DNA of 64,000 nt. Origin: a virus. A program made the translations under genes and the position numbers. The stretch is from the IMG/VR virus record IMGVR_UViG_3300010396_000037; one strand, given 5' to 3'. The notes under the pieces were generated by a model. The model saw only the letters and a list, made by a program, of their open reading frames with translations. It was not told the origin of the DNA and made no database searches. Shown in pieces: positions 30,778 through 45,525 of this stretch (the first letter of the stretch is position 1; every line of letters starts with the position of its first letter).

Positions 30778-30878
30778 AGTCCTCGTGTTAAGGGTTAAAG
30801 CGAAATGCTGAACCCAGCTGTAAAATTCAAGCTACTTTGAAAACTGATCAAATTTCACTTGTCCACTCGCAAGAGTGG

Positions 30879-31007
30879 ACATTAGAAAGGGTTCGCCGAT
30901 ATTAGAGCTGATAACTGAACACGACTAGCAAATCGATTCAGGAATAAGCTGCTCGGCTAGGAGGAATCTGGAAACAGAAATACCAGCGGATGAATCCTTT
31001 CTAATGT
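30879..31007 (+). ncRNA. structured ncRNA candidate
   Basis: 17-bp terminal stem ACATTAGAAAGGGTTCG/TGAATCCTTTCTAATGT. Confidence 0.6.
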
Positions 31008-31011
31008 ATAT

Positions 31012-31097
31012 GGGTGTCAGGGAGAGGTCTCCCACGCAGTCTGTAAAACTGCTGCCTCACAAGGGCAATCTAGGATCGTTACCTAGGGCACCCACCA
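31012..31097 (+). tRNA. tRNA-Tyr(GTA)
   Basis: Cloverleaf, long V-arm, CCA; atypical D and T loops. Confidence 0.85.
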
Positions 31098-31102
31098 ATT
31101 TA

Positions 31103-31185
31103 TGGCCTGAAAGCTTGTAAGTCCATGCCGAATTACAACATGGCGTTGAAAACGTAAGCGGGAGAATGGCCCGCCAAGGCAACCA
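31103..31185 (+). ncRNA. degenerate tRNA-like RNA
   Basis: 5-bp/7-nt T-like arm plus ACCA; weak acceptor stem. Confidence 0.45.
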
Positions 31186-31189
31186 AATG

Positions 31190-31287
31190 CAGTAAATGTA
31201 ACAGTGCTGGATGAACGGCTAAGTCGCCCCATTAAAGGGGAGATCCTAGGTTCGAGTCCTAGGGAATAACACTGATAACATTTGCTG
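31190..31287 (+). ncRNA. tRNA-like domain on a long closing stem
   Basis: D-like arm, CCCC/GGGG arm, CTAGG-TTCGAGT-CCTAG, no CCA. Confidence 0.6.
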
Positions 31288-31289
31288 AA

Positions 31290-31601
31290 GTCAGAGGATA
31301 ATGGATGGCCGTCCGGCATCCTCTGGCGGATCTATCTGGATCACAAGAGGGTAGCGGCACAGATAAACCGTCCTGGCGTGATCCTGTTCTTTGCTCATTG
31401 TAAGATGTAAATGAGCTATATCGGTGAGGTTTGCTGCAATCTCACACGTGACCTAAACTGGCAGCATTTAAGTAAAGTTGATGTATCTGGACCTCGAGAC
31501 GGAACATAGCAAAATCTGTGTTCAAATAGAATGACCGGATAGCGCCGGATCACGGGGTAGAACGTTACCAGATGGGAGCTGAGCATCTCATAAAACTGCT
31601 C
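31290..31601 (+). ncRNA. large pseudoknot-rich ncRNA candidate
   Basis: Multiple hairpins, two H-type pseudoknots, no credible ORF. Confidence 0.6.
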
Positions 31602-31609
31602 TTGAATTT

Positions 31610-31682
31610 GGGGCGTGAGCAGATGGCGAGCAACCGCACTGTCTATGCGGTGAAAGGGTTTCGAATACCCTACGTCCCGCCA
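31610..31682 (+). tRNA. tRNA-Asp(GTC)
   Basis: Cloverleaf, GCCA. Confidence 0.88.
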
Positions 31683-31686
31683 AATT

Positions 31687-31787
31687 GAGGTGGCACTTGT
31701 CTCTTCAGACAGAGCTCCTGAATGTGAGACAATGAGTTGGGATCAGAGAATCCGCGAACTCAACACAATTTATGTGCGCACCCGCCA
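31687..31787 (+). ncRNA. structured ncRNA candidate ending GCCA
   Basis: Three-way junction; TTGTCTC/GAGACAA and TGAGTT/AACTCA. Confidence 0.5.
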
Positions 31788-31816
31788 GCTTTTAGAGTGG
31801 TCTAGGTAGCGGCAAT

Positions 31817-31891
31817 GAACCACGACGCAGCTGGTGTGGCGGAGAGGCTTTCACCCTCTTGAGATGGGATCGAAACCCATGTGGTTCTCCA
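31817..31891 (+). tRNA. tRNA-Glu(TTC)
   Basis: Cloverleaf, CCA. Confidence 0.85.
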
Positions 31892-31980
31892 ATTTTTGTA
31901 AAAGTTGTAGTATACTTGAAAGAATTCAGTGGGCGCATCCTCGGCTCCTACAAATTGTTGCACACAGAGAATCAATTTAA

Positions 31981-32058
31981 CGGAGTGTAGCTCAGTCTGG
32001 CTAGAGCATCTGCTTTGGGAGCAGAGGGTCGCAGGTTCGAATCCTGTTTCTCCGACCA
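31981..32058 (+). tRNA. tRNA-Pro(TGG)
   Basis: Canonical cloverleaf. Confidence 0.95.
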
Positions 32059-32062
32059 ATAT

Positions 32063-32139
32063 CAGGGTATAGTTCAGTCTAGTAGAATACTCGGCCTGGA
32101 ACCGAGAGGTCGTTGGAGCGAAGCCAACTGCCCTGACCA
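32063..32139 (+). tRNA. tRNA-Pro(TGG) variant (C33, AGCG T-loop)
   Basis: Cloverleaf, CCA. Confidence 0.85.
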
Positions 32140-32225
32140 ATAAAAAAGATACAAGATAGCCGTCAACTGGGCAACTCCTTTCCCAGTTGCCTTTGAACCG
32201 GAACTTGTATTGATGGAGAAGAACT

Positions 32226-32299
32226 GGGCTGCAAGCATTAAAGTGATGCAGCGGGCCTTTAACCCGCAGAACAGAGAGCGTTACTCTGGCGGCCCACCA
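32226..32299 (+). tRNA. tRNA-Lys(TTT) variant (C33)
   Basis: Cloverleaf, CCA. Confidence 0.85.
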
Positions 32300-32323
32300 A
32301 ATATGCAGCAGAGGAGAATTGCC

Positions 32324-32560
32324 ATGAACACTTATAAGAGTCCAGCGACATATTTTTCTCCATATTCTGTTGTTTCTGGTGTGAACGCTGATATTGCTCG
32401 TCATAGAGACGCGATTAAGGATATGGAAGAAAGGCGCGAAGAGGAAATTCGGAATTCTGGATACAGTACAGATATTGCCCGTCATTATGAATTCTTTATA
32501 AGATTGGCAAAGGATAGTCTTGCAATTGTGACTGATAAAGGTCTTGGCAGAAAGAAGTAA
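32324..32560 (+). CDS. hypothetical protein
   Basis: GAGGAG RBS. Confidence 0.65.
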   Translation: MNTYKSPATYFSPYSVVSGVNADIARHRDAIKDMEERREEEIRNSGYSTDIARHYEFFIRLAKDSLAIVTDKGLGRKK

Positions 32561-32746
32561 TTTAGAGTCAGAACTGAATTTGGTGATGGGCGTTTCCCAC
32601 AAGAACCTTTCAGCAGGGGGAAACTTAAATGGCCTGTAGCCTGCCAACTCGTTTTTTTTAGTCTCGAGAAACGGGTAGTCCGTTAGCTGCTAGCCATAGC
32701 TGGCAGTTTTCTGATGGTGCAACTCCATCAATCTTTACAACGCTGT

Positions 32747-32821
32747 GGGGATTGTAGTTCAATGGTAGAATCTCCGGCTGTGAACCGGAAGACTCAAGAT
32801 CGATACTTGACTTTCCCCCCA
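32747..32821 (+). tRNA. tRNA-His(GTG)
   Basis: Cloverleaf with G-1:C73, CCA. Confidence 0.88.
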
Positions 32822-32827
32822 ATTTAT

Positions 32828-32901
32828 GGGTCTGTAGCTCAAAGGTAGAGCAGAGAGCTGTTAACTCTCCGACCAGGGATCATTACCCTGCTGGCCCGCC
32901 A
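32828..32901 (+). tRNA. tRNA-Asn(GTT)
   Basis: Cloverleaf, GCCA. Confidence 0.88.
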
Positions 32902-32905
32902 ATTT

Positions 32906-32981
32906 GGAACCGTAACTCAATTGTGTAGAGACACGCCTTTTAAGCGGAATGATGAGGGTTCGAGTCCCTCCGGTTTCACCA
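32906..32981 (+). tRNA. tRNA-Lys(TTT)
   Basis: Cloverleaf, weak anticodon stem. Confidence 0.85.
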
Positions 32982-32992
32982 GATTTATAGAA

Positions 32993-33130
32993 TGGACGTG
33001 CATAACGTCCAATAGCAGGTTGAGTCTTGAAAACTCCTTTGCCTGCGAGTTTGTCAACTGACTTGACGGAAAGTTGATGAGCGATTAGTCAATGAAATTC
33101 AACTGCGTCAACAGATGAATGAATTGACTC
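32993..33130 (+). ncRNA. four-hairpin ncRNA candidate with kissing loops
   Basis: Loops TTGACG (33063) and CGTCAA (33106) are complementary. Confidence 0.55.
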
Positions 33131-33138
33131 ATTATTTT

Positions 33139-33212
33139 GGGCTCATAGTACAATGAGAGTACACTGCGCTTGCACCGCGGAGATTAGGGTTTGATTCCCT
33201 ATGGGTCCACCA
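33139..33212 (+). tRNA. tRNA-Ala(TGC)
   Basis: G3:U70, CCA. Confidence 0.9.
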
Positions 33213-33282
33213 ATTTAACAAGCGTTAATTTTTATTTGCTGAATCAAGGTATAATTATCAATTCACATTGATGAAGAATACC

Positions 33283-33516
33283 ATGAATACGATACCTACC
33301 ACGCTTGAATCATTCAAACGATTGGTTGCAAGTTTTTGTAAGAAAGCTGCTGAATGTGATTCGTTGGAGAGTTTGGATGCTGGTTTCAAGACTGTCTCAT
33401 TAGGATATCTTGGATTGCAGAGTGATTCATCTGCGGACGCTCTGATCTCGCAATCATATCTAGAGTATGCATCAAACAGATATGCAGAAAACGAAGTTAG
33501 ATTGTTACAGAAATAA
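33283..33516 (+). CDS. hypothetical protein
   Basis: Follows promoter 33215-33255. Confidence 0.6.
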   Translation: MNTIPTTLESFKRLVASFCKKAAECDSLESLDAGFKTVSLGYLGLQSDSSADALISQSYLEYASNRYAENEVRLLQK

Positions 33517-33520
33517 ATTT

Positions 33521-33608
33521 GCCGGTGTGGTGGAATTGGTAGTCACGCTGGACTCAAAATCCAGTGCCCTCAAAAGGCGTGTCGGTTCGAGTCCGACCAT
33601 CGGTACCA
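33521..33608 (+). tRNA. tRNA-Leu(CAA)
   Basis: Canonical type II. Confidence 0.95.
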
Positions 33609-33686
33609 AATTTCATGTATCAGTCCCAGTTAATACGTTAGGCTGATTTAATTCCTAGGTCGGTGTAGGAGCATGAAAAATACAAT

Positions 33687-33776
33687 GGAGAATGAAGCAG
33701 AGCGGCCTCTGCCACCGCCTTGAAAGCGGATGGTCCGGGAAACCGGATGGTGATCGACACAGCCCGTTCTCCGCCA
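33687..33776 (+). tRNA. tRNA-Ser(TGA), 8/4 fold
   Basis: 8-bp acceptor, 6-bp D stem, long V-arm, G73. Confidence 0.85.
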
Positions 33777-33780
33777 ACTT

Positions 33781-33871
33781 GGAGGATTACCTGACGCAGT
33801 CGTCAGCATCGCCTGGAAAGCGATCGGTTCGGTGCAAACCGAATGGGAGGCGGCATCTCAATTCTCCGCCA
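33781..33871 (+). tRNA. tRNA-Ser(GGA), 8/4 fold
   Basis: GGAGGATT/AATTCTCC acceptor, 4-bp T stem. Confidence 0.85.
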
Positions 33872-33939
33872 CTTACTTTTTTGAATCTTGTGTAGTATAA
33901 TAACTGTTCTGTTCAACAACATCATTATGGAGAAGTTCT

Positions 33940-34215
33940 ATGAATCAGTCCAAACAATATTTGGTCATGCGTAAGCAACATTCTGCTGGACATAACACCC
34001 GTTTTCTGACCACCTTCGGATCATTTCGGTATAAAGCAGAACTGCAAGGTGGAGAAGAGTTCGTTATTGTTCCATATAAAAAAGCTGTCAAGTTCACAAA
34101 TGAATTCCAACAAGAAAGTTATCAAGTTGCTAAGAATCTAAAAAGGAAACTTGGCAGTGCAGGGAAGTCTTTCGGCGTCCGTCCCGATTTCTTTTTTGCT
34201 CCAAAGGAAGTCTAA
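33940..34215 (+). CDS. hypothetical protein
   Basis: TATAAT plus GGAG RBS. Confidence 0.7.
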   Translation: MNQSKQYLVMRKQHSAGHNTRFLTTFGSFRYKAELQGGEEFVIVPYKKAVKFTNEFQQESYQVAKNLKRKLGSAGKSFGVRPDFFFAPKEV

Positions 34216-34223
34216 ACAAATTC

Positions 34224-34298
34224 GGGTTGCTAACTCAACTGGTAGAGTCACGCCTCTTAAGCGGAAAGATCGGGATTCGACTTCCCGGCAACCCACCA
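34224..34298 (+). tRNA. tRNA-Lys(CTT)
   Basis: Cloverleaf, CCA. Confidence 0.88.
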
Positions 34299-34305
34299 AA
34301 TTTAT

Positions 34306-34379
34306 GGCCAGATGGCAGAGTGGTTATGCAGTCGCCTGCAAAACTTCGTACGTCGGTTCGATTCCGACTCTGGCTTCCA
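34306..34379 (+). tRNA. tRNA-Cys(GCA) with disrupted anticodon stem
   Basis: U73, CCA; stem GTCGC/ACTTC mostly unpaired. Confidence 0.8.
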
Positions 34380-34446
34380 ATTCGTTAAGCTTCTGTTAAG
34401 AATTATAGCATTATAATACCTGGTTCCACAACCACAGGACCAAATA

Positions 34447-34644
34447 GTGAAAACTCTTGAAGGCTTGTACGAAGATTGTCGTTCCTACATTGGTTTGAAT
34501 CCAGTTGAAATGACTTCAAGTGATGCACTGGCGTTGTATGCCTTTGTTGAACAGTACACAACAATGGCAAAGGTTCCGAAGGAAGTCATTGATGCTGCAC
34601 AAAAGGTGGCCAACAAATTGCAAGAGTTACACATTCAAGTATAA
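34447..34644 (+). CDS. hypothetical protein
   Basis: Promoter plus AGGA RBS. Confidence 0.6.
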   Translation: MKTLEGLYEDCRSYIGLNPVEMTSSDALALYAFVEQYTTMAKVPKEVIDAAQKVANKLQELHIQV

Positions 34645-34653
34645 ATAAATGTA

Positions 34654-34727
34654 GAGCGTGTGGTATATTGATTGTGCCACGGTCTTCCAAACCGTCGAAG
34701 CGGGTTTGATTCCCGTCATGCTCTCCA
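34654..34727 (+). tRNA. tRNA-Gly(TCC)
   Basis: Cloverleaf, U73. Confidence 0.88.
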
Positions 34728-34734
34728 AATTCGT

Positions 34735-34810
34735 GCAGGTATAGTTCAATTGGTAGAATGCTTCCTTGCCAAGGAAGTGGTTGAGGATTCGAGTTCCTCT
34801 ACCTGCTCCA
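34735..34810 (+). tRNA. tRNA-Gly(GCC)
   Basis: Cloverleaf, U73. Confidence 0.92.
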
Positions 34811-34818
34811 AGCTCCAT

Positions 34819-34894
34819 GCGGGAGTCGTCCAATATCTAAGACGCCAGTCAGCTAAAGACTGGAAATGCTGGTGAAAATCCAGCCCCTGCTCCA
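34819..34894 (+). tRNA. atypical tRNA with central CTA triplet (candidate amber suppressor, Gly-like acceptor)
   Basis: 6-bp stem CCAGTC/GACTGG, loop AG-CTA-AA, TCCA end. Confidence 0.6.
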
Positions 34895-34900
34895 AATTAT

Positions 34901-34975
34901 ATGCCGCTAGTGTTAATGGCAGCACACCAAACTCCAAATCTGGTAGTGAGGGTTCGAATCCTTCGCGGCATGCCA
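34901..34975 (+). tRNA. tRNA-Trp(CCA)
   Basis: Cloverleaf, GCCA. Confidence 0.9.
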
Positions 34976-35044
34976 AATAGCAGAGAAATTCTATGAGTAT
35001 GTGGGGATAGTTTAATTAGAACACCATTTCTGTGAGGTCATATC

Positions 35045-35278
35045 ATGAGCATAGATAAGTCTAAGGTCATCAAAATTATTGGCCCAGATTCAATGTGCTT
35101 TCAAGTGGATGCACAAACTCTTGAAGCAATCTGTTGTGAATATTATGATCCATGGGCCAAGACTCACCCAGAAGCTGGTTACAAAGAAACCATTTCATAT
35201 TTTGAATGGCTTCGCAGACTGGATGAGAGACATGAAAAAGAAAAACAAGAATTCTACCTATCGTTTAACAAGGATTAA
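35045..35278 (+). CDS. hypothetical protein
   Basis: GAGG RBS. Confidence 0.65.
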   Translation: MSIDKSKVIKIIGPDSMCFQVDAQTLEAICCEYYDPWAKTHPEAGYKETISYFEWLRRLDERHEKEKQEFYLSFNKD

Positions 35279-35297
35279 TAAATCTTTGCTGAATCAC

Positions 35298-35332
35298 AGT
35301 ATAATTACTCCTGTTGACAAACTTACTGGAGT
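35298..35332 (+). repeat. 35-bp promoter/RBS repeat, identical copy at 42238-42272
   Basis: AGTATAATTACTCCTGTTGACAAACTTACTGGAGT. Confidence 0.9.
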
Positions 35333-35337
35333 GTGTC

Positions 35338-35532
35338 ATGAAAGTTACTGTGTATCTGACTTCTGGCGCAAAGATTACACTGAAACACGTGGAGAAGTTT
35401 GATATCAAGGTCAATAGTGAAGGTGTTTGTACATCATACCAAATGAAGTCCTATGGCGATGTAGCGCTTTACATCAATCCTTTGCAAATCGTGGCGTTGG
35501 TGCGTCATCACCGTTTCCTGGGAATCTTCTGA
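35338..35532 (+). CDS. hypothetical protein
   Basis: Promoter plus GGAG RBS. Confidence 0.7.
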   Translation: MKVTVYLTSGAKITLKHVEKFDIKVNSEGVCTSYQMKSYGDVALYINPLQIVALVRHHRFLGIF

Positions 35533-35542
35533 GGAGAACACC

Positions 35543-35767
35543 ATGTCTTATGCAACTGGCTCCAAAGAAAACTTCATCACTGTGACCAAAGGAATGTCTG
35601 GCAACTTCGCCGTCATGTTCTGGTGGAATCCTGATCTTGGCGGTTTCTGGGAACCTTGGACAACTGGTTTTGGTCGTTATGAAACCCAGAAGGAAGCCAT
35701 TCAAGAAGGAATTGCATGGGCTGAAGCTGAAGAACTTGAATTTGTTGAACCATCCAAAATTGCTTAA
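35543..35767 (+). CDS. hypothetical protein
   Basis: GAGGAG RBS. Confidence 0.7.
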   Translation: MSYATGSKENFITVTKGMSGNFAVMFWWNPDLGGFWEPWTTGFGRYETQKEAIQEGIAWAEAEELEFVEPSKIA

Positions 35768-35895
35768 CCCAGAATCGCCGACTAATAGGCAGGATCTGAA
35801 GCAATTTGATGTGTAAACCACTAATGAAGTTAGGCAAATCCTGCTTCTGACCTGTGGGTATCGGAGATGAGGTTCATCCGAACATTTTTGTTGTA

Positions 35896-36107
35896 TGGTG
35901 AGCTTTGTAGGCTAAATATGCTGATGAACGCGGAGACTTAGCGGCTTGATTCTACTCGGGTGTGGCAGCATTGTAGTGCACTATGATGCAACGATTGATC
36001 ATCGTGACTGTTCGTGGGTTTGACTCCCACCATCGGCTTCTACAAAGATAGCAGTTACATGGAGTGACTGAGGGAATAACACGAGGCGCAATTGCGCGCC
36101 TACACCA
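35896..36107 (+). ncRNA. scaffolded tRNA-like RNA, copy 1
   Basis: GGTG-AG-stem-[tRNA-like 35920-36037]-stem-AACACG-AGGCG/CGCCT-A-CACC. Confidence 0.7.
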
Positions 36108-36123
36108 AAAGGAAAATAAATTT

Positions 36124-36197
36124 GCCCGGTTAGTTTAATAGTAAAATGCCTCTCTTACACGGAGGATTCGGCGGAGCGTAACCGTCACTGGGTACCA
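36124..36197 (+). tRNA. tRNA-Val(TAC)
   Basis: Cloverleaf, CCA. Confidence 0.88.
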
Positions 36198-36310
36198 ATT
36201 TTGTACATGGAGCATATATGATTACTACAGGTTGGGTCGCTAGAGCGATCATCAGTATGACTCCTGTTGTTTTAATTGGAATTTTGATTGTCTATGTTGT
36301 TTGTAATTTT

Positions 36311-36485
36311 TAGGTGAGTTCTTGAGGTAACAGAATTGACTGTGGGGGTGTAGCTCAACGTTAGAGCACTGAATGCAAGGAGTGTGGCGCGCGCGATCTC
36401 CTTTGGTTCAAGGATGGTGGTTTAACTCCGCCCATCCCCTGCTCAAGAAAACTTAACACGAGGCGTCAACACACGCCTACACCTA
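36311..36485 (+). ncRNA. scaffolded tRNA-like RNA, copy 2
   Basis: Same scaffold around tRNA-like 36344-36439. Confidence 0.7.
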
Positions 36486-36495
36486 GAAAGTTTAT

Positions 36496-36607
36496 GCGGT
36501 TGTCGGGTAAGCTGGTATCCCTCTGCATCATTTGATGCAGGCTTTAATTCCAATAAACGGTCCGTGAGGGAATTGAAGTGGTGGTTCGAATCCATCTGAC
36601 CGCGCCA
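36496..36607 (+). ncRNA. tRNA-like RNA with closed anticodon arm and ~40-nt V-arm
   Basis: Acceptor, D arm, TTCGAAT T-loop, GCCA. Confidence 0.7.
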
Positions 36608-36610
36608 AAT

Positions 36611-36687
36611 TGAATTGTTAGTTCAAAGGAAATCAAAGAACACTTCCGCGGAGGGAGGATGTGAGGTTCGACTCCTTGCACAATTCA
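36611..36687 (+). ncRNA. degenerate tRNA-like RNA (5-nt anticodon loop, no CCA)
   Basis: TGAATTGT/ACAATTCA acceptor, D and T arms. Confidence 0.6.
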
Positions 36688-36693
36688 TAAAAT

Positions 36694-36770
36694 GCCCTCG
36701 TAGCCCAATTGGTAGAGGCGTCGTCCTTAGAAGTCGAAGGTTGTCGGTTCGAATCCGACCGAGGGTACCA
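36694..36770 (+). tRNA. tRNA-Leu(TAG), short variable loop
   Basis: Cloverleaf, A73. Confidence 0.88.
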
Positions 36771-39569: not shown

Positions 39570-39586
39570 AATAAAAAGGTATTCAC

Positions 39587-39778
39587 ATGAGCATAAGTTC
39601 ATCCCGAACACCAGAAGAGGCTCTTCTAGAATGTGATAGACTGATAACTTACTATCAATCTGTTATGAATGCATCTATTGTATCTGATCTAAATCCTACA
39701 GCTGCGCGTGATCTTTTATATTCTGCGATTGCTGTGAAGAGAGACATTCAATTAAGAATCAGAAATAATTCTAACTGA
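39587..39778 (+). CDS. hypothetical protein
   Basis: AAGG RBS. Confidence 0.6.
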   Translation: MSISSSRTPEEALLECDRLITYYQSVMNASIVSDLNPTAARDLLYSAIAVKRDIQLRIRNNSN

Positions 39779-39856
39779 CATTTATCACTCGTTAATAAAT
39801 CTTTAGTGAATTACGGTATAATAATTCCTGTTGAATCAACTCTACTGGAGAATATC

Positions 39857-40180
39857 ATGGACACGCATGCTCAAGTCGTTAAAGCTATGCAGCAACTTTT
39901 GAAGAATCCTGACTTGTGTGTGAACGTATGCTGGGAAATAGCAGCTAACTGCCCAGTCTATTTTCTTCAAGCTGTTGATGAAGTATGCCCAGATATCAAA
40001 GAAGCATCATTACCCTTGGTCGAAAGAGTGCGCAAATTAGCTTACTCACTTCCCCGTTCCGACTCCAGCGTAGGCAAGGTTGAGTTCATCAAAGCCCATC
40101 GCCAATTGACAAAGATGGGGTTAAAAGAATCAAAAGACTGGGTAGAAGCCAACTGGGCTGAATTTGGTCCACGCTGTTAA
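39857..40180 (+). CDS. protein with ribosomal L7/L12 C-terminal-like domain
   Basis: KVEFIKAHRQLTKMGLKESKDWVE matches K...IK..R..T..GLKE.KD.VE. Confidence 0.7.
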   Translation: MDTHAQVVKAMQQLLKNPDLCVNVCWEIAANCPVYFLQAVDEVCPDIKEASLPLVERVRKLAYSLPRSDSSVGKVEFIKAHRQLTKMGLKESKDWVEANWAEFGPRC

Positions 40181-40218
40181 AAAGCAATAAATGACTTCAG
40201 TTCTTCAATGATTGATTT

Positions 40219-40361
40219 GAAACTTGGCGGCGTGGAGAGTAGACACGCACTTGCATGCAGGAGTGGCCTGCCACCGGGAGCCCTATTTAAGATTCACTGG
40301 CGGATCGTACCCACGACAATAATCAAAACGCGCAGTTGGAGTAACGCCCAACCCAAGTTTC
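40219..40361 (+). ncRNA. tRNA-shaped ncRNA candidate
   Basis: GAAACTTGG/CCAAGTTTC stem, GCGTG/CACGC and GTTGG/CCAAC arms, T-run after. Confidence 0.6.
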
Positions 40362-40379
40362 CCTTTTTTGGAACCAATC

Positions 40380-40677
40380 ATGAATAATATGAAAATTCGC
40401 TATCATAAGGAAGATGTAGATCAAACCATTAAATGAATCAAGCAATACAATCCATATTACGACTCTAGACAAGCGAAATGGTCAGATGACGCTATCCGGA
40501 AGTCTATTATGGATAGCATTGAGATAATGCGTGACTCAGAAGTGCCGTGGACTTCAACCATGGGGTATGTGATTTTTTAAATGTTTTGATGATGAAGAAG
40601 GTTTCATTGATGTAGAGATCGCGATGAATTGCAATTTGCCTCGCAATATAATCCAAGAACCCATTATTTTGAGCTGA
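40380..40677 (+). pseudogene. disrupted hypothetical gene
   Basis: In-frame TGA at 40434 and apparent frameshift at T6 near 40573. Confidence 0.5.
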
Positions 40678-40679
40678 TC

Positions 40680-40892
40680 ATGAATACTATTGAATTAACT
40701 CCAGAGTTCATTGATGCTGTGAGTGCAGGTGCTAGTGCACTTGTAACTATGGCAGAAGAACTTCAGAGAAATGAACATTACAACGAAGACGGCCCAATCG
40801 GAGAATTGGTTCGAAAAACTGTTGAAAGCAACTATCAAAAAGTTGACCTCTTGAGAGGTTGGCTGGTACGAATTGAAGGAAAAGAAAAGTAA
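40680..40892 (+). CDS. hypothetical protein
   Basis: ORF in operon. Confidence 0.65.
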   Translation: MNTIELTPEFIDAVSAGASALVTMAEELQRNEHYNEDGPIGELVRKTVESNYQKVDLLRGWLVRIEGKEK

Positions 40893-41296
40893 TGAGAGCT
40901 TATACAATTGTTAATATGTACATGCAGGGCATTCATGCCGGCATTCAAAGTGCGCATATCTTGTCTGAAATGGCGTTGGATTCTGCAAGCAAACCAGATC
41001 ATAAATCTGCTGCGACTTTCTACAGTTGGGCAACGAACGACAAGACTCTCATTGTACTGAATGGCGGTAGCAACAAAAATCTTCGCAAGATGATGGATTT
41101 GATTGAACCTGCTTGCGATAAGCTTGATTTGCCTTTCGCTTACTTCACTGAATCAGAAGAAGCTTTGGATGGGGCATTGACTGGATTTGGATTGATTGTT
41201 CCGTCAAGGATCTATGAATCTGGTGTCGCTAATGACTACCGCACTTCTGAAAACAGTATTTCAAGTTGCCTAAATTTGCTTCAATTAGCGCGATAA
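40892..41296 (+). CDS. Pth2-like (peptidyl-tRNA hydrolase II fold) protein
   Basis: G..AGIQSAH...W....KT.IVL.GG...F.E...L...T..G pattern. Confidence 0.6.
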   Translation: MRAYTIVNMYMQGIHAGIQSAHILSEMALDSASKPDHKSAATFYSWATNDKTLIVLNGGSNKNLRKMMDLIEPACDKLDLPFAYFTESEEALDGALTGFGLIVPSRIYESGVANDYRTSENSISSCLNLLQLAR

Positions 41297-41303
41297 TAAA
41301 TTT

Positions 41304-41397
41304 GGTCCTGTAGTGTAATTGGAAGCACCGACTGCCTTATAAACAGTGAGCGCCAGATTAGCGCCGAGCGTGGGTTCGATTCCCACTGGGACCACCA
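41304..41397 (+). tRNA. tRNA-Ile(TAT) with long variable arm
   Basis: Loop CT-TAT-AA, GCGC/GCGC V-arm, ACCA. Confidence 0.8.
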
Positions 41398-41413
41398 ATT
41401 TTAGGAATATATT

Positions 41414-41620
41414 ATGTCACATCATCATTCCTTCAATACACAACCACGCAAGCGCATGCGTCAAAAGGACGCATTGATGCGCTGGAAGTGGCGGTTGAGC
41501 AAAAAGGGACAATTATCGAACAAGCTCACAGATGAACAGGAACGTTCATTTTGTTCAGCTGCTATTGAAATCTGCAAACAACAGATCGCCTTTATCGAAG
41601 CCAAAGGCATAACAGCTTAA
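41414..41620 (+). CDS. basic hypothetical protein
   Basis: AGGA RBS. Confidence 0.6.
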   Translation: MSHHHSFNTQPRKRMRQKDALMRWKWRLSKKGQLSNKLTDEQERSFCSAAIEICKQQIAFIEAKGITA

Positions 41621-41626
41621 ATTCTT

Positions 41627-41703
<77 letters not shown>

Positions 41704-41711
41704 AATAGGAA

Positions 41712-41993
41712 ATGATTATGGAGATTAACGCTGTTATTACAACTGCAGAACATCGCACTGTAGATATACGTGTTGAAGATGTATTTGAAATATTCTGGAG
41801 AAAGATCATTAACAAGTTTGGTGTACCAGCAAAAGCATACATAAATTTAGACGGCATGTGGGAAACTTGGGAAGACACAGGTCACGGTTCAGGCATATAT
41901 GATACTATCCGGAAGGCAACACCAGAAGAAGTGAGTGTGGTTGGCGCATTTGCAAAAATGCGTGAGTTTATTAGGGATAAATATGAACGCTGA
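41712..41993 (+). CDS. hypothetical protein
   Basis: HGSG...IRKAT.EE motif; RBS. Confidence 0.65.
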   Translation: MIMEINAVITTAEHRTVDIRVEDVFEIFWRKIINKFGVPAKAYINLDGMWETWEDTGHGSGIYDTIRKATPEEVSVVGAFAKMREFIRDKYER

Positions 41994-42201
41994 AGATAAT
42001 TTGCTTGATAATATTGACTATCTAAAACAGAAGTTGAATGAAGCAAGGGAAGAATTGGAACGGATGAAGAACAATATCAAAAATGCTCAACCAGTGACAG
42101 TCAATTCCCTGAATTACATGAAAGACGTCCTAGAAGGTTATTACGAAATTGGCATTGGCCGCTATCCAAAACCCAATTACGTGTTTTTGCATGTTGACTG
42201 A
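41983..42201 (+). CDS. hypothetical protein
   Basis: ORF in operon. Confidence 0.6.
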   Translation: MNAEDNLLDNIDYLKQKLNEAREELERMKNNIKNAQPVTVNSLNYMKDVLEGYYEIGIGRYPKPNYVFLHVD

Positions 42202-42277
42202 CGTTTAACTTAGATTAAGTTATCTTACTTAAAATGTAGTATAATTACTCCTGTTGACAAACTTACTGGAGTACGTC

Positions 42278-42631
42278 ATGAACATCAATCGTTGGAAAAT
42301 CAAGGATTTCAAAGAAGCCGAAAAGGTTGCTGAGAAGTTGACTGAGGAAACGTTGGTGCGCCATGTCGCAGTTGATGCGGGCTCAAATGTTTTTCCACGC
42401 TTTGGTGCTATTCGCGTACCACAAGTTGGTGATGCTGTCAGTTATGCTTTCAATGGTGACTATTATCCTGATGGCTACATCGCCTCCGTTTCCAGTGGAG
42501 TCAAGATGGTTATCAAGACTTCTAAAGGCCACGTGTATTATCGCCACTTGAAGACTGGCTGTTGGATCATGAAAGGTGGCACATGGCGTTTGGTCGATGG
42601 CCATCGTAGCGAATTGAATCCCAGTTTCTGA
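42278..42631 (+). CDS. hypothetical protein (SH3-like C-half)
   Basis: Promoter 42205-42245 plus RBS; P.VGD.VSY.FNGDYYP..LNPSF. Confidence 0.75.
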   Translation: MNINRWKIKDFKEAEKVAEKLTEETLVRHVAVDAGSNVFPRFGAIRVPQVGDAVSYAFNGDYYPDGYIASVSSGVKMVIKTSKGHVYYRHLKTGCWIMKGGTWRLVDGHRSELNPSF

Positions 42632-42653
42632 GAATAGAAGTAAGGAGAGCAAT

Positions 42654-42827
42654 GTGTTAGCCGAAGCCAGTTATCCATACCAAGATTGGGAGACTGAAGT
42701 CTTGCAAGATTTTCCCAATGCTGAATTCACTGACAATGATGCAATCGCCGTGGTGAATGGGGTTGAAACTCTTGTTTCGACGTATTATCCGCATCAAAAC
42801 TTTGCTCGTTGGTGGCTGGAGAAATGA
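42654..42827 (+). CDS. hypothetical protein
   Basis: GTG start, AAGGAG RBS, 57 aa. Confidence 0.55.
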   Translation: MLAEASYPYQDWETEVLQDFPNAEFTDNDAIAVVNGVETLVSTYYPHQNFARWWLEK

Positions 42828-42828
42828 C

Positions 42829-43047
42829 ATGTATGACTCTATCTACACTCACAGAGAACGCACAGTAGCCAATCATACAATTGGCGAAGCTCTTGAAAGT
42901 GCAAAACGCAGGCTGATTGAAAAGGATTTTGGTGGCTATTTCTGTGTTGATTCAATTAGCAATCGTTCCTTGCATGACAAAATCACTCTGGAAGAGCTAA
43001 ATAACATTGCTGAAAGAATAGTGGAAGATAGCTTGTATTATGACTGA
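42829..43047 (+). CDS. hypothetical protein
   Basis: GGAG RBS. Confidence 0.6.
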   Translation: MYDSIYTHRERTVANHTIGEALESAKRRLIEKDFGGYFCVDSISNRSLHDKITLEELNNIAERIVEDSLYYD

Positions 43048-43055
43048 TGATATGT

Positions 43056-43129
43056 TGGGGATTAGTTCAATGGTAGAATAGATGGCTCTGAACCATCAGA
43101 CAGCAGATCGATACTGCTATCCCCTGCCA
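43056..43129 (+). tRNA. tRNA-Gln(CTG)
   Basis: Cloverleaf, GCCA. Confidence 0.9.
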
Positions 43130-43295
43130 TTTATGGAGCTGAGATAATGAATTACAAGTTATATCTTCTGCTGTGTGCTGTATCTGGTTTAAATTGTGGA
43201 TTTTTATCCACTCTCTTGCTACATCAATAATCGTCAATTTAATCATTTGTGGTTTGTTGAGCGCAGTTTACTTGGTATGCAAGGAAAATTAATCT

Positions 43296-43376
43296 ACCCG
43301 TGTAACCAGCATCGCTACGAACGATGACTAAGGTAATTGGAGGCAGATGCAGGTTCGAATCCTGTCGCGGGTGCCA
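43296..43376 (+). tRNA. rearranged tRNA-Arg(ACG), no D arm at the normal position
   Basis: Acceptor, TAACC, CATCG-CTACGAA-CGATG, GGTAATTGGAG, canonical T arm, GCCA. Confidence 0.78.
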
Positions 43377-43392
43377 ATTTTAGGGTTTGATT

Positions 43393-43632
43393 ATGGAACA
43401 CGACCCTAACAAAGCTATAGATAACGTCGTCAAAGTCATTGATGATCATCTTCCAATTTTATGTAAAGAAATGTTACAATTTGAAGATGATAGAGGCAAA
43501 GGCTTGCGCATGATTTACTGCGAGCAATTGTTAGCTGACGCAGGCATGAGTAATTACAATGCTCAAGTGATAGTGCAAAATTTAATCAGACACGCAGCTG
43601 TCAAGAGAATTTGCAAAGAATTTGAAGAGTAA
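43393..43632 (+). CDS. hypothetical protein
   Basis: ORF. Confidence 0.6.
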   Translation: MEHDPNKAIDNVVKVIDDHLPILCKEMLQFEDDRGKGLRMIYCEQLLADAGMSNYNAQVIVQNLIRHAAVKRICKEFEE

Positions 43633-43635
43633 ACT

Positions 43636-43866
43636 ATGAACAATCTAGAAGAAGCTTTTCAAGACATCAAATTTTTAAATAATATACGAACGAAGTTTCA
43701 ATCTGGCAACGAAATTCCTGTTACGGAAGCATGTATTACAAGACAAGAATGGGAAGCTGTTGATCGCATTCTTAAAGCACAAGCAAGAGATTTAGCTGTT
43801 TTGGAGAGTAAGCTAGACTTAAAAAATTGGAGAGTGAATTGGGCTGGGCCCAAGGTGGTTTGCTAA
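43636..43866 (+). CDS. hypothetical protein (KFQSGN.IPV motif); 3' end runs into tRNA-Ser
   Basis: ORF; true stop uncertain (A6 run). Confidence 0.6.
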   Translation: MNNLEEAFQDIKFLNNIRTKFQSGNEIPVTEACITRQEWEAVDRILKAQARDLAVLESKLDLKNWRVNWAGPKVVC

Positions 43867-43919
43867 ACCATTCGTTCGGTGAAGAACCGAATCGGGATCG
43901 TAACCTGCTCTCTCCGCCA
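43829..43919 (+). tRNA. tRNA-Ser(GCT), 8/4 fold
   Basis: GGAGAGTG/CTCTCTCC acceptor, CGGG/CCTG T stem. Confidence 0.85.
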
Positions 43920-44017
43920 TCTGGTACACTTTATGAAAATTTCTAAATAACTCGAACAAGATTGTTTGAGTAGAAACTACAAAGTTGAAGTGAAATTGAC
44001 TAAGAAATGAATTATAT

Positions 44018-44105
44018 GCCCATGTGGTGGAATCGGTAGTCACGGCGGACTTAAAATCCGCTGCTCTAATAAAGCGTGTCGGTTCGAGTCCGACCATGGG
44101 CACCA
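44018..44105 (+). tRNA. tRNA-Leu(TAA)
   Basis: Canonical type II. Confidence 0.95.
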
Positions 44106-44125
44106 AATAATTATGGAGCAATATC

Positions 44126-44317
44126 ATGAAGACGACTGAAGATATTATTCTTGAAAACGTAGAGAAAGCTATCAAAGACTACAATGACGTACCTAAGCAC
44201 ACTAGCAACAAACTTCTTTATCGGTGGTATGCGTTTGGAGTAATTTCTTCAGCTTTCACTTCTTTACATTTTCCTTCACATGAATATTACAGTTATCTTG
44301 AACGCATAAATATATAG
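44126..44317 (+). CDS. hypothetical protein
   Basis: GGAG RBS. Confidence 0.6.
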   Translation: MKTTEDIILENVEKAIKDYNDVPKHTSNKLLYRWYAFGVISSAFTSLHFPSHEYYSYLERINI

Positions 44318-44322
44318 AATGA

Positions 44323-44398
44323 TGGGGACAAACGCAAGTGGCTGAGCTGGATGCCTTTGAAGCATTCGTAGTCGGATCGAAACCGACGTCCCCTGCCA
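44323..44398 (+). tRNA. tRNA-Gln(TTG)
   Basis: Cloverleaf, weak D arm, GCCA. Confidence 0.82.
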
Positions 44399-44403
44399 AT
44401 TTT

Positions 44404-44479
44404 GGGTTGTTAACAATTACGGTTAATGTACGCGCCTGAAGAGCGCAGGAAGTAGGTTCGACTCCTACACAACCCACCA
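44404..44479 (+). tRNA. tRNA-Phe(GAA)
   Basis: Cloverleaf, CCA. Confidence 0.88.
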
Positions 44480-44509
44480 ATTTGAAATTTGATCAGTTAG
44501 GATAAAGTC

Positions 44510-44995
44510 ATGAGCAAGTCAAATTACGACAAGAAGATCACGATTGAAGAACTTCAGGAATTCATGAAAAGTGTTGGACCAAACACCAAGGTGTTCTATG
44601 GCTCTGACTCTGAACGCTATAAGCATAATGGTGTTTGGTATGCTGATTATTTCTGTGTTATCGTGATTCATGTTGATGGATGCCATGGCGGAAAAGTGTT
44701 CGCTGAAGTCTCCACTGAAGCAGATCATGACCAAAATGTTGACCGTCCTTTCAACCGTCTGATGACGGAGACGCAGAAGGTTGCAGAACTTTTCTTAAGG
44801 ACCAAGGAAGTGTTCTATGACTATGAAATTGAAATTCACTTGGACATCGCACGTGATGAGAAGTGGGGTTCAAACTGTGCTGCACAGGCAGCGACTGGTT
44901 ACATCAAGGGTGTGTGTCAAGTTACGCCTGTATTGAAGAATGACTCCTTCGCGGCATCGTTCTGTGCCGACCGTGGTAGGGAATTCATTCACTGA
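44510..44995 (+). CDS. RNase H-like YkuK (DUF458) family protein
   Basis: GSDS, RLMTE, EIHLDI, FAASFCADR. Confidence 0.85.
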   Translation: MSKSNYDKKITIEELQEFMKSVGPNTKVFYGSDSERYKHNGVWYADYFCVIVIHVDGCHGGKVFAEVSTEADHDQNVDRPFNRLMTETQKVAELFLRTKEVFYDYEIEIHLDIARDEKWGSNCAAQAATGYIKGVCQVTPVLKNDSFAASFCADRGREFIH

Positions 44996-45002
44996 TAAGT
45001 AA

Positions 45003-45106
45003 TGGTTGGTGGTCAATTAAGCGTTGACTTAAATTCAAGGGAATCGGAGTTAGCTGCTCCGTAACCGAGGGAATGTCCGAGCAATAAGCAAAGACTACAC
45101 CAACCA
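45003..45106 (+). ncRNA. structured ncRNA candidate
   Basis: TGGTTGGTG-GTC/GAC-TA-CACCAACCA terminal stem. Confidence 0.5.
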
Positions 45107-45132
45107 CTACCTTTTTTTGATGGGAAATGAAA

Positions 45133-45330
45133 ATGAAAACGTATCAATTATCCGCAAGTGTAACTGTAAGTGCCTACACTGAAGTTGAAGCCAACAGTCT
45201 TGAAGAAGCGATAGAAATCGCAAAAGGACGCTCTGTTTTGATTGGTGATGAAAGAAGCGGCGTGTTTGTAGATGAAATGTGGGCAATTGATGAAGCAGAT
45301 GGTGAACCAACAAATATACATGAAGCGTAA
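45133..45330 (+). CDS. hypothetical protein
   Basis: VEANSLEEAIEIA motif. Confidence 0.65.
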   Translation: MKTYQLSASVTVSAYTEVEANSLEEAIEIAKGRSVLIGDERSGVFVDEMWAIDEADGEPTNIHEA

Positions 45331-45338
45331 GAGATGAT

Positions 45339-45454
45339 GGTAGTGAATGCGGAGGCTGATCCGCAAGGAATGGTGACCGAGTGGCGTATGGGCTGCGGGG
45401 TCAAAAATCCTAAATCCTCCATACAAGTCAGAGAATCCAGCACTGGCCACTACC
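45339..45454 (+). ncRNA. tRNA-shaped ncRNA candidate
   Basis: GGTAGTG/CACTACC, TGCGGA/TCCGCA arm, GTCAG/CTGGC arm, T8. Confidence 0.6.
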
Positions 45455-45525
45455 TTTTTTTTGAATGCGACGAAGCGATAATATTGAATTAGATAGCGAT
45501 CATTGTGCTTAAGAAGGATAAGATC

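Follow-up and report, generated by a model that had tools for sequence, protein, structure and literature searches.

A 14.7-kb island of tRNA genes, tRNA-shaped RNAs and other structured RNA candidates in a T4-like phage from soil

The stretch of 64,000 nucleotides (nt) of the virus record IMGVR_UViG_3300010396_000037 (IMG/VR), hereafter the window, contains an RNA-rich island at 30.78–45.46 kb, with the plus strand used throughout. The island holds 39 tRNA genes, seven tRNA-shaped RNAs, about ten further structured non-coding stretches, about 20 small open reading frames (ORFs) and six copies of one promoter-like motif (Table 1). The phage is T4-like, about 154 kb in size and from soil: the window encodes gp32, a dUTPase and an Rnl-type RNA ligase, which is a T4-like gene context, proteins identical to those of the window were found on contigs of about 154 kb, and the stretch is present in public soil metagenomes. 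Contigs of related phages (about 160 kb) carry 25–37 tRNA matches apiece. In the GenBank phage collection no close relative was found by DNA, where only single tRNAs matched, and the protein search gave one weak match only. The relatives used below are soil metagenome loci (L numbers) and contigs; parts of the island without contig cover in four runs were given no weight.

The tRNA set was taken as the union of ARAGORN, the Rfam model RF00005, a covariance model built from 29 island tRNAs and run with the filters off (R1), a pattern scan for T hairpins that have a 7-nt acceptor strand and NCCA on their 3' side, and inspection and folding of doubtful cases. ARAGORN called 27 tRNAs by default (31012–44479, all on the plus strand), RF00005 gave 29 at the gathering score, rising to 31 once its filters were relaxed, and the union amounted to 39 genes, each with an encoded CCA. 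This agrees with the "about 39" of a preliminary description made from the sequence alone. Anticodons for all 20 amino acids, also claimed there, are present, Cys being doubtful because its anticodon stem is unpaired. The set contains single genes for Tyr, Asp, His, Asn, Ala, Cys, Trp, Val and Phe and a single gene with a CUA loop, two genes each for Glu, Pro, Gly, Ile and Gln, three each for Lys, Leu, Ser, Thr and the CAU anticodon, and four for Arg. RF00005 scores reached at least 29 bits (the gathering score) for 31 of the 39; the eight below it (Tyr, Asp, Glu-TTC, the three Ser, CUA and CAT-37286) were called by ARAGORN, R1 or by hand.

In 34 of the 39 genes the anticodon loop has 7 nt, includes U33 and sits on a paired stem of 5 bp. 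The exceptions are the genes at 32226 and 38758 (both C33), 34819 (G33) and 34306 (stem unpaired), together with Ile-TAT, which is not a clear case: either its stem has 4 bp and contains a C-A mismatch, or its loop is 9 nt long. The gene at 34306 is the sole Cys(GCA), and its homologues in L013, L020 and L034 have paired anticodon stems. The idea that the CUA element at 34819 is a mutated copy of the extra tRNA-Trp of L034 was rejected. T loops without UUC occur in 17 or 18 of the 39 tRNAs, mostly with A54 (AUCGAAA, AGCGUAA, AUCGUUA), and several of these tRNAs also have no GG in the D loop. The acceptor stem of tRNA-His contains two U-U mismatches, and the gene scores as an ordinary 7/5 tRNA.

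About one third of the set deviates from the standard cloverleaf. In Arg(TCT) and Arg(ACG), the acceptor strand is followed by UA, three bases and the anticodon arm, with no D hairpin, and an invariant block GUAAYUGGAG separates the anticodon arm from the T arm. At most, columns 10–12 could form a weak 3-bp helix with columns 38–40 (81% of cells paired). A pattern search found this form in seven IMG/VR contigs, mostly from phages with large tRNA arrays. In nine sequences, changes on both sides were seen in 9 of the 11 acceptor and anticodon stem pairs, 94.7% of cells pair, and none of 500 shuffles matched the observed score. The block reads like the D loop of a tRNA-Arg, and we take its GGA to fit G18, G19 and A20, the last being the ArgRS identity base of E. 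coli tRNA-Arg. Since the block looks like a D loop and the stems covary, we read both genes, judging from sequence, as putative working tRNAs with a re-wired elbow.

The tRNA-Ile(UAU) has an additional hairpin 5' of the T arm, with a 7-nt loop C-N-GAU-U-A. This loop is kept, and its stem covaries, in three phages (the window, L010:1807–1901 and L003:5253–5342); the extra arm may mimic the anticodon loop of tRNA-Ile(GAU) and so help IleRS to accept a UAU tRNA. In the three Ser tRNAs, inspection showed acceptor, T and D stems of 8, 4 and 6 bp, respectively, together with G73 and a long variable arm. These tRNAs thereby share the form of the 8/4 Ser/allo-tRNA group, and this form is already known, because Mukai et al. 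(2017, PMC5389517) reported 8/4 tRNA-Ser in the tRNA clusters of phages of alpha-proteobacteria. It is clear in Ser(GGA) and Ser(GCT); the T stem of Ser(TGA) is weak, with three of four pairs. In addition, U33 is absent in four tRNA-shaped genes, namely those at 32226 (C33), 38758 (C33) and 34819 (G33) and the CCA-less element 36612–36687 (G33, conserved). U33 adjoins the PrrC-type cleavage site. The Lys variant with C33 at 32226 has the same loop and compensatory stem changes in L013 and is identical in L032.

The tRNA mimics that the preliminary description saw interleaved with the tRNA genes correspond to seven tRNA-shaped elements without a readable anticodon or CCA. They have an acceptor stem, a T arm and mostly a D arm; the anticodon arm is closed, giant or missing, and four of the seven have no CCA. 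One is the core of a 242-nt module (31207–31263), two are held within scaffold RNAs described below (35920–36037 and 36344–36440), and the others are located at 36496–36607, 36612–36687, 38369–38506 and 38837–38962. Their inserted arms are well paired, with fold z-scores of −3.3 to −4.1 against dinucleotide shuffles (control mean −0.46, sd 0.8). With the tRNA-Sec model, the element at 36496 reached no more than 14.8 bits. The core of the element at 36612 is 87–89% identical in L032 and L034, where ARAGORN calls Pro(CGG). An ORF (38400–38708) overlapping the element at 38369 had a coding score of 0.07. No homologues of the elements at 36496, 38369 and 38837 were found among the loci fetched.

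Two of the tRNA-shaped elements are passengers of a recurrent scaffold RNA, in which GGUGAG is followed by a 7–8-bp helix strand (P2), the passenger, the other strand of P2, a linker, the junction UAACACGA, a 5-bp hairpin (P3) and UACACC, which pairs with the start to form P1. The 3' motif of the scaffold gave no match in IMG/VR; its matches came from eight contigs of JGI metagenomes and from Logan contigs that belong to relatives. Among at least 12 distinct copies, P2 is formed by nine different self-complementary sequences, P1 alternates between GGUG/CACC and GAUG/CAUC, and the closing pair of P3 is C-G or U-A. RNAalifold analysis of six aligned copies predicted 41 pairs, and in 15 of these both sides have changed, with the acceptor and T stems of the passenger included; the homologue of scaffold A in L020 has compensatory changes in the passenger acceptor. 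The length of the anticodon-side arm of the passenger varies from about 14 to 45 nt across the copies, one copy has a permuted tRNA-like passenger, and the position of the scaffold differs among phages. No gap separates P3 from the 3' strand of P1, which is also how T arm and acceptor strand are joined in a tRNA, so that the frame itself would have a tRNA-like topology. Two copies (L026 and L031) hold no tRNA-like passenger, so the scaffold core probably serves a function independent of passengers. An inspection of the scaffold by eye for the core motifs of hammerhead and other self-cleaving RNAs found none. The scaffold RNA makes a good candidate for a new family of RNAs connected with tRNA processing or with the conflict over tRNAs. 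A block upstream of scaffold A (35815–35885, CUGACCUGUGGGUAUCGG) is more conserved in L020 than its surroundings and may belong to the scaffold transcript.

The about ten non-coding stretches have no coding signal, and several of them fold better than shuffles (z −2.2 to −5.7). For a leader of 227 nt, located between the first promoter-like motif and tRNA-Tyr, 63 pairs were predicted, and across five lineages 24 of these have changed on both sides. The 242-nt module is present in L038 and absent in L032, L034 and L040. The closing stem of the small hairpin motif at 31338 has been replaced outright (GGAUCA/UGAUCC here, AGAGGUC/GACCUCU in L032 and L034). The 326-nt multibranch RNA is a discrete block in relatives, since a contig piece matches 36779–37102 with five differences and joints were found at both ends. 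The stretch at 40225 is not coding, because relatives carry 1- and 2-base indels; it shows a helix swap, while its z-score of +1.5 is no better than shuffles, so that any structure is putative. Other gaps of the island are structured by z-score alone or unstructured. In all, about 17 non-tRNA RNA candidates were counted. This number is close to the "about 20" unexplained structured RNAs of the preliminary description; comparative support is restricted to six or seven. That description would have been contradicted by a lack of covariation in relatives; compensatory changes were found in several of the atypical RNAs, namely the leader, the scaffold and the D-arm-less Arg. With Rfam and ARAGORN the non-tRNA elements stay unassigned, none of them, leader and scaffold included, having an Rfam match at the gathering score. 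Relaxed Rfam matches to snoZ266, Plastid-ycf2 (antisense of tRNAs), HIV SL3 and tRNA-Sec (14.8 bits) were rejected as chance level.

The promoter-like motif, about 47 nt long with TATAAT at its end, was recognized through repeat families in six copies within the island. A pattern of the motif core matches four of these six and one site upstream of the transfer-messenger RNA (tmRNA) gene, with none expected by chance; that site lies at 8593–8623. We take the upstream half of the motif to resemble the MotA box of T4 middle promoters. A scan with the sigma-70 consensus was uninformative, giving fewer sites than shuffles, and terminator-like sites lie mostly within tRNA or scaffold hairpins.

Joints at module borders were found in soil relatives (31101→31344, 36771→43828, 37102→37301, 37555→38288 and 39491→35282). 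At 37522–38291, a resident tRNA gene is split by a cassette consisting of a nuclease ORF and its own tRNA-Ile(GAU); relatives have an intact GAU tRNA and no nuclease. No target-site duplications were found around the 326-nt module. Because the modules are distributed mosaically among relatives, recombination or mobility evidently also shapes the island.

Table 1. Features of the island and their positions in the window
Position	Strand	Feature	Evidence
30730–30778	+	Promoter-like repeat 1, opens island	TATAAT 30772–30777; repeat families D8/D10/D16; kept in L032/L034/L038/L040
30785–31011	+	Leader RNA G1: three hairpins and closed multi-helix domain, ends at tRNA-Tyr 5' end	z −4.3
31012–31097	+	tRNA-Tyr(GTA), class II, T loop AUCGUUA	ARAGORN; conserved L032/L034
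31102–31343	+	242-nt module with T-arm-bearing tRNA-like core 31207–31263	R1 19.6 bits
31338–31384	+	Small hairpin motif	Core 88–97% identical across lineages
31396–31609	+	Structured non-coding stretch, no relatives found	z −2.5 to −3.4; no coding signal
31610–31682	+	tRNA-Asp(GTC)	ARAGORN; R1 54.7 bits
31817–31891	+	tRNA-Glu(TTC), T loop AUCGAAA	ARAGORN; R1 47.4 bits
31981–32058	+	tRNA-Pro(TGG)	ARAGORN, Rfam
32063–32139	+	tRNA-Pro(TGG) copy 2, T loop AGCGAAG	Rfam 50.2 bits; ARAGORN at lower threshold
32140–32225	+	Structured spacer	z −4.3; not conserved in L032
32226–32299	+	tRNA-Lys(TTT) variant, C33 (loop CCUUUAA), D loop without GG, T loop without UUC	R1 59.8 bits
32324–32560	+	ORF, 78 aa, no assigned function	Shine–Dalgarno and coding score 0.34; ~90% conserved in relatives
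32561–32650	+	Conserved non-coding stretch	82–90% identity L032/L034; structure weak
32748–32821	+	tRNA-His(GTG)	ARAGORN, Rfam
32828–32901	+	tRNA-Asn(GTT)	ARAGORN, Rfam
32906–32981	+	tRNA-Lys(TTT), canonical loop	ARAGORN, Rfam
32982–33138	+	Structured RNA G7, three hairpins	z −5.7; 89% identical in L032, changes pair-keeping
33139–33212	+	tRNA-Ala(TGC)	ARAGORN, Rfam
33209–33255	+	Promoter-like repeat 2	Repeat families
33521–33608	+	tRNA-Leu(CAA)	ARAGORN, Rfam
33687–33776	+	tRNA-Ser(TGA), 8/4 type	Inspection/fold; identical in L032
33781–33871	+	tRNA-Ser(GGA), 8/4 type, 6-bp D stem	Pattern scan, inspection
33940–34215	+	ORF, 91 aa, no assigned function	Coding score 0.40
34224–34298	+	tRNA-Lys(CTT)	ARAGORN, Rfam
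34306–34379	+	tRNA-Cys(GCA)-like, U73, anticodon stem unpaired	Rfam 44.8 bits
34654–34727	+	tRNA-Gly(TCC)	ARAGORN, Rfam
34735–34810	+	tRNA-Gly(GCC)	ARAGORN, Rfam
34819–34894	+	tRNA-like, loop AGCUAAA (CUA at anticodon, G33), CCA	R1 21.6 bits, E 3e-4; fold; no homologue found
34901–34975	+	tRNA-Trp(CCA)	ARAGORN, Rfam
35259–35305	+	Promoter-like repeat 3	Repeat families
35338–35532	+	ORF, 64 aa, 3' of repeated 5' leader hairpin	Repeat families, coding map
35543–35767	+	ORF, 74 aa, adjoins scaffold A in relatives	8 homologues; synteny L020/L034
35897–36106	+	Scaffold RNA A: P1 GGUGAG/CUACACC, P2, passenger 35920–36037, junction UAACACGA, P3 hairpin	
36124–36197	+	tRNA-Val(TAC)	Rfam 45.5 bits
36313–36483	+	Scaffold RNA B, CCA-less tRNA-like passenger 36344–36440	Passenger Rfam 41.9 bits
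36496–36607	+	112-nt tRNA-shaped RNA: closed anticodon hairpin, ~38-nt variable arm, GCCA end	z −4.1
36612–36687	+	tRNA-shaped RNA, loop CGCGGAG (CGG, G33), no CCA	R1 12.8 bits
36694–36770	+	tRNA-Leu(TAG), without long variable arm	ARAGORN, Rfam, inspection
36779–37104	+	326-nt multibranch RNA, terminal helix ~25 bp	z −4.2
37286–37357	+	tRNA(CAT), small D arm	R1 29.4 bits; homologues L020/L029
37360–37434	+	tRNA-Thr(CGT)	ARAGORN, Rfam
37442–37515	+	tRNA-Thr(TGT)	ARAGORN, Rfam
37522–37557	+	5' half of tRNA gene, cut in anticodon loop	Relatives carry 3' half, anticodon GAU (Ile)
37576–38238	+	Zinc-finger endonuclease ORF, 220 aa, mobile	Weak Phage_endo_I and zf-C2H2; absent in relatives
38218–38291	+	tRNA-Ile(GAT), 3' end of nuclease cassette	ARAGORN, Rfam
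38288–38334	+	Promoter-like repeat 4	Repeat families
38369–38506	+	138-nt tRNA-shaped RNA: giant anticodon-side arm, extra hairpin, UCCA end	z −3.3
38758–38832	+	tRNA(CAT), C33 (loop CCCAUAA)	R1 37.8 bits; L029 homologue has U33
38837–38962	+	126-nt tRNA-shaped RNA, two expanded arms, no CCA	Rfam 29.8 bits; fold
38975–39049	+	tRNA-Arg(CCG)	ARAGORN, Rfam
39063–39245	+	ORF, 60 aa	Coding score 0.34
39248–39321	+	tRNA-Thr(GGT)	ARAGORN, Rfam
39323–39397	+	tRNA-Glu(CTC)	ARAGORN, Rfam
39405–39487	+	tRNA-Arg(TCT), without normal D arm; block GUAACUGGAG 3' of anticodon arm	
39493–39569	+	tRNA-Arg(CCT)	ARAGORN, Rfam
39587–39778	+	ORF, 63 aa	Coding score 0.46
39776–39822	+	Promoter-like repeat 5	Repeat families
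39857–40180	+	L7/L12 C-terminal-domain-like ORF, 107 aa, borderline	PF00542 25.8 bits vs cut-off 25.9
40225–40360	+	Conserved non-coding stretch; adjoins tRNA-Tyr in relatives	73–77% identity L032/L034/L040
40680–40892	+	ORF, 70 aa	Coding map
40892–41296	+	Pth2-like hydrolase ORF, 134 aa	phrog_3668 'hydrolase', E 1e-32
41304–41397	+	tRNA-Ile(TAT), extra arm with loop CAGAUUA	ARAGORN, inspection
41414–41620	+	ORF, 68 aa, weak	Coding map
41627–41703	+	tRNA-Met(CAT), best-scoring tRNA	Rfam 72.8 bits
41983–42201	+	ORF, 72 aa	Coding map
42202–42248	+	Promoter-like repeat 6	Repeat families
42278–42631	+	ORF, 117 aa, phrog_9742, no assigned function	PHROG
42654–43047	+	Two small ORFs, 57 and 72 aa	Coding map
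43056–43129	+	tRNA-Gln(CTG), U1-U72 unpaired, G73	ARAGORN, Rfam, pattern scan
43296–43376	+	tRNA-Arg(ACG), without normal D arm; block GUAAUUGGAG 3' of anticodon arm	Rfam 31.8 bits
43393–43632	+	ORF, 79 aa	Coding map
43829–43919	+	tRNA-Ser(GCT), 8/4 type	ARAGORN gave 43832–43915; inspection
44018–44105	+	tRNA-Leu(TAA)	ARAGORN, Rfam
44126–44317	+	ORF, 63 aa	Coding score 0.47
44323–44398	+	tRNA-Gln(TTG)	Rfam 29.9 bits; R1 59 bits
44404–44479	+	tRNA-Phe(GAA)	ARAGORN, Rfam
44510–44995	+	RNaseH_like (PF04308) ORF, 161 aa	E 1.1e-11; phrog_11311
45127–45492	+	Two small ORFs at island end, 67 and 52 aa, weak	Coding map

Elsewhere in the window, the RNA ligase, tmRNA, phosphatase, SLOG and cyclic-phosphate receiver genes mentioned in the preliminary description are all present: RNA_ligase at 1–870, a permuted (two-piece type) tmRNA with the tag ANDNAYDLALAA at 9517–9919 (ARAGORN and Rfam), a YAcAr SLOG domain at 17728–18126, a Metallophos phosphoesterase at 46198–46965 and a cREC_REC gene (cyclic-phosphate processing receiver) at 47610–47924. 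Permuted tmRNAs are typical of alpha-proteobacteria, among others, and since the tmRNA is of this type, the host is probably an alpha-proteobacterium, likely a GC-rich one. The GC content of the phage is 42–45%, its codon usage is AT-leaning, and AUA makes up 19% of its Ile codons.

Three genes of the island were named L7/L12-like, Pth2-like and RNase H-like in that description. The RNase H-like gene is supported by the PF04308 match. The Pth2-like assignment of the 134-aa protein is supported by PHROG and by Atlas features and structure, not by Pfam: the features gave 0.91 to a cluster with 56% PF01981, and the Atlas model (pLDDT 0.88) gave TM values of 0.70–0.78 to PF01981-bearing clusters, including eukaryotic Pth2, while no Pfam PTH2 (PF01981) match at E 0.01 or better and no PDB sequence match were found. 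The L7/L12-like assignment is borderline, as the match falls just below the cut-off and spans 25 residues only; an Atlas score of 0.84 to clusters with 56% PF00542 is a lead only. The relatives reached via the RNase H-like and Pth2-like proteins (L001, L017 and L018) have few or no tRNAs, and a search with the L12-like protein found no viral locus.

The closest known arrangement is the tRNA region of T4, with eight tRNAs, the stable RNAs rnaC (species 1) and rnaD (species 2), segB and trna.2-4. The two stable RNAs of the T4 cluster, which the preliminary description had mentioned, are indeed seen in this layout. Both regions lie on one strand of a T4-like genome and combine a tRNA cluster with non-tRNA RNAs, stable in T4 and putatively so here, with small ORFs and with a homing endonuclease; the island is about ten times larger and has 39 tRNAs versus 8 and about 17 extra RNA candidates versus two. 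The nuclease cassette that splits a tRNA gene resembles segB inside the T4 cluster in its placement, whereas the island nuclease is a zinc-finger Endo I-like protein and segB belongs to the GIY-YIG type. A BLASTP comparison of T4 trna.2-4, segB and e.5-e.8 with the island ORFs gave nothing below E 0.04. The T4 RNAs were compared with the island by eye and by fold, not by sequence. T4 rnaC (L043:2409–2547, minus strand) is 139 nt long; its closing stem resembles an acceptor, its T arm is canonical (CCGGG-UUCGAAU-CCCGG), and with these two features it is of one kind with the giant tRNA-shaped RNAs of the island. The island as a whole is a much enlarged T4-type tRNA region, and phage tRNA arrays in general are already known.

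Large phage arrays proposed as anti-defence, those of mycobacteriophage cluster C1 and T5 (PMC10264068, PMC11555353), likewise have at least 30 genes, are near-complete and include some altered loops. In the island, by contrast, the changes go beyond the loop (missing D arm, extra arms, missing U33). The metazoan mitochondrial tRNA-Ser(AGY) (PMC4013460) is likewise a three-helix tRNA with no D hairpin at positions 10–25; the island Arg form differs from it in belonging to phage genes, in its full-size T arms, in the D-loop-like block after the anticodon arm and in being Arg-specific. GOLLD, ROOL, HEARO, YrlA and tmRNA (Rfam) are also structured RNAs near phage tRNAs, and no non-tRNA element of the island reaches a gathering score. 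YrlA, which is Y-RNA-like, and the island scaffold both join a tRNA-like module to a closing stem; the best YrlA match was 23.4 bits versus 69 and lay over a T arm, and alpha_tmRNA gave 14.3 bits versus 50. The D-arm-less tRNA-Arg, the scaffold RNA and the two-armed tRNA-Ile(UAU) appear to be undescribed: no published description of the three classes was found, and the literature search for the Arg form in particular gave no paper.

The best-supported function of the island, which we hold to be probable, is that of a T4-type tRNA operon with a self-sufficient tRNA supply, freeing phage translation from the host pool. Judging from gene content, conservation and covariation, six or more phage promoters would drive polycistronic transcripts, which host RNase P and 3' processing enzymes would cut into 39 tRNAs reading every sense codon. 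The same processing would leave the leader, the scaffold RNAs and the giant tRNA-shaped RNAs as stable by-products. The tRNAs, once charged, would help where the host pool is unsuitable, as for an AT-rich phage in a GC-rich host, or where it is destroyed by shut-off or by tRNA-cleaving defences, and the rebuilt tRNAs (Arg, Ser and Ile(UAU)) would retain the parts needed for charging and decoding. Three observations weigh against this reading. A tRNA supply leaves about 4 kb of conserved structured non-tRNA RNA unexplained; some of the "tRNAs" may be non-decoding, because four tRNA-shaped genes have no U33, which is normally needed for decoding; and the Cys tRNA has a broken anticodon stem, so that Cys coverage is doubtful.

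If the tRNAs merely offset the difference in codon usage between phage and host, the other RNAs would be processing spacers, leaders, terminators or regulators of small ORFs. The AT-leaning codon usage of a phage of 42–45% GC in a probably GC-rich host agrees with this, as do the anticodon coverage, which is complete and not limited to a few defence-targeted species, the leader placed exactly between promoter and first tRNA, and the established fact that tRNA-like folds are natural RNase P signals. Nevertheless, so restricted a role seems rather doubtful to us: spacers need neither conserved multi-helix folds of 200–330 nt nor an invariant 22-nt junction with a hairpin, kept in at least 12 diverged copies, and duplicate isoacceptors with altered loops (two Lys UUU and three CAU) would be superfluous. 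A counter-defence and decoy interpretation is plausible. Carried to an arsenal in which substitute tRNAs resist nucleases, shapes without CCA or anticodon, free or presented by the scaffold RNA, act as decoys for defence enzymes that cleave or modify tRNAs, and the RNA ligase, phosphoesterase/cREC, tmRNA and Pth2 carry out repair, it can draw on the four loops without U33 next to the PrrC-type cut site, on the conserved C33 Lys variant and on the repair and rescue genes of the same window. The passengers keep their acceptor, D and T arms while the anticodon arm varies from about 14 to 45 nt, as a decoy recognized by its elbow and acceptor would. That phage tRNAs take the place of those cut by defence nucleases has been shown or argued (PMC10264068, PMC11555353), and further literature on phage tRNAs and defences is consistent with such a role (PMC12409363). 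Anticodon nucleases, however, mostly read the anticodon loop, which the passengers lack, and the scaffold copies of L026 and L031 contain no tRNA-like passenger at all, so we infer an anti-defence role of this breadth to be unlikely.

The mosaic of modules could also mean that the island is a landing zone, in which small mobile or recombining cassettes spread via repeated tRNA ends and promoters and persist as selfish elements. Candidates for such cassettes are the scaffold elements, the 326-nt RNA closed by its long terminal helix, the insert of 242 nt and the nuclease ORF together with the tRNA-Ile of its cassette: presence, absence and rearrangement joints coincide with module borders in soil relatives, the scaffold occupies different places in different phages, and the nuclease cassette interrupts a resident tRNA gene as segB does in the T4 cluster. 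The 326-nt module, on the other hand, has no target-site duplications, no transposase or reverse transcriptase was found, and the compensatory changes point to selection on RNA pairing and not on DNA ends alone; selfish modules are an improbable explanation. A still less likely one, which we would give little weight, takes the odd elements for drifting remains of duplicated tRNA genes. The Cys stem broken here and intact in homologues, the tRNA 5' half left at 37522–37557 and the lack of homologues for 36496–36607, 38369–38506 and 38837–38962 among the fetched loci would be expected of pseudogenes; well-paired inserted arms (z −3.3 to −4.1) would not, nor would the conservation with covariation of Arg, Ile(UAU), Lys-C33, the scaffold and the leader across lineages differing by 20–30%. 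The supply, counter-defence, decoy and mobility readings are not mutually exclusive. We tentatively propose, as a less than likely possibility, that the three-helix Arg, the UAACACGA-junction scaffold with its swappable passengers and the GAU-mimic Ile(UAU) might act jointly in a conflict over the tRNA pool of the host, serving as decoys, as lures for synthetases and as substitutes that are nuclease-proof.

What the stable RNAs of the T4 tRNA cluster do has been an open question for about 50 years. Many more RNAs of this kind occur in the present phage group, and they vary enough for their folds to be defined. If charged and used, the D-arm-less Arg pair and the two-armed Ile(UAU) would widen what bacterial translation accepts as a tRNA and would provide new chassis for tRNA engineering.

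According to the coding-potential maps, the first 6.5 kb of the island are nearly gene-free, with five small ORFs, and the second half has about 15 small ORFs. The minus-strand ORFs of the island, including a 281-aa frame at 31802–32647, have no coding signal. Two hydrophobic ORFs of about 28–30 aa between RNA genes (36212–36300 and 43147–43233) may encode small membrane peptides. Directly 3' of the island (46198–47924), a 241-aa ORF with a weak SpmSyn_N match accompanies the Metallophos and cREC_REC genes, and the distant relative L019 also keeps a Metallophos gene. The neighbors of the RNA ligase gene are two paralogous DUF932 proteins (966–1940 and 3819–4781).

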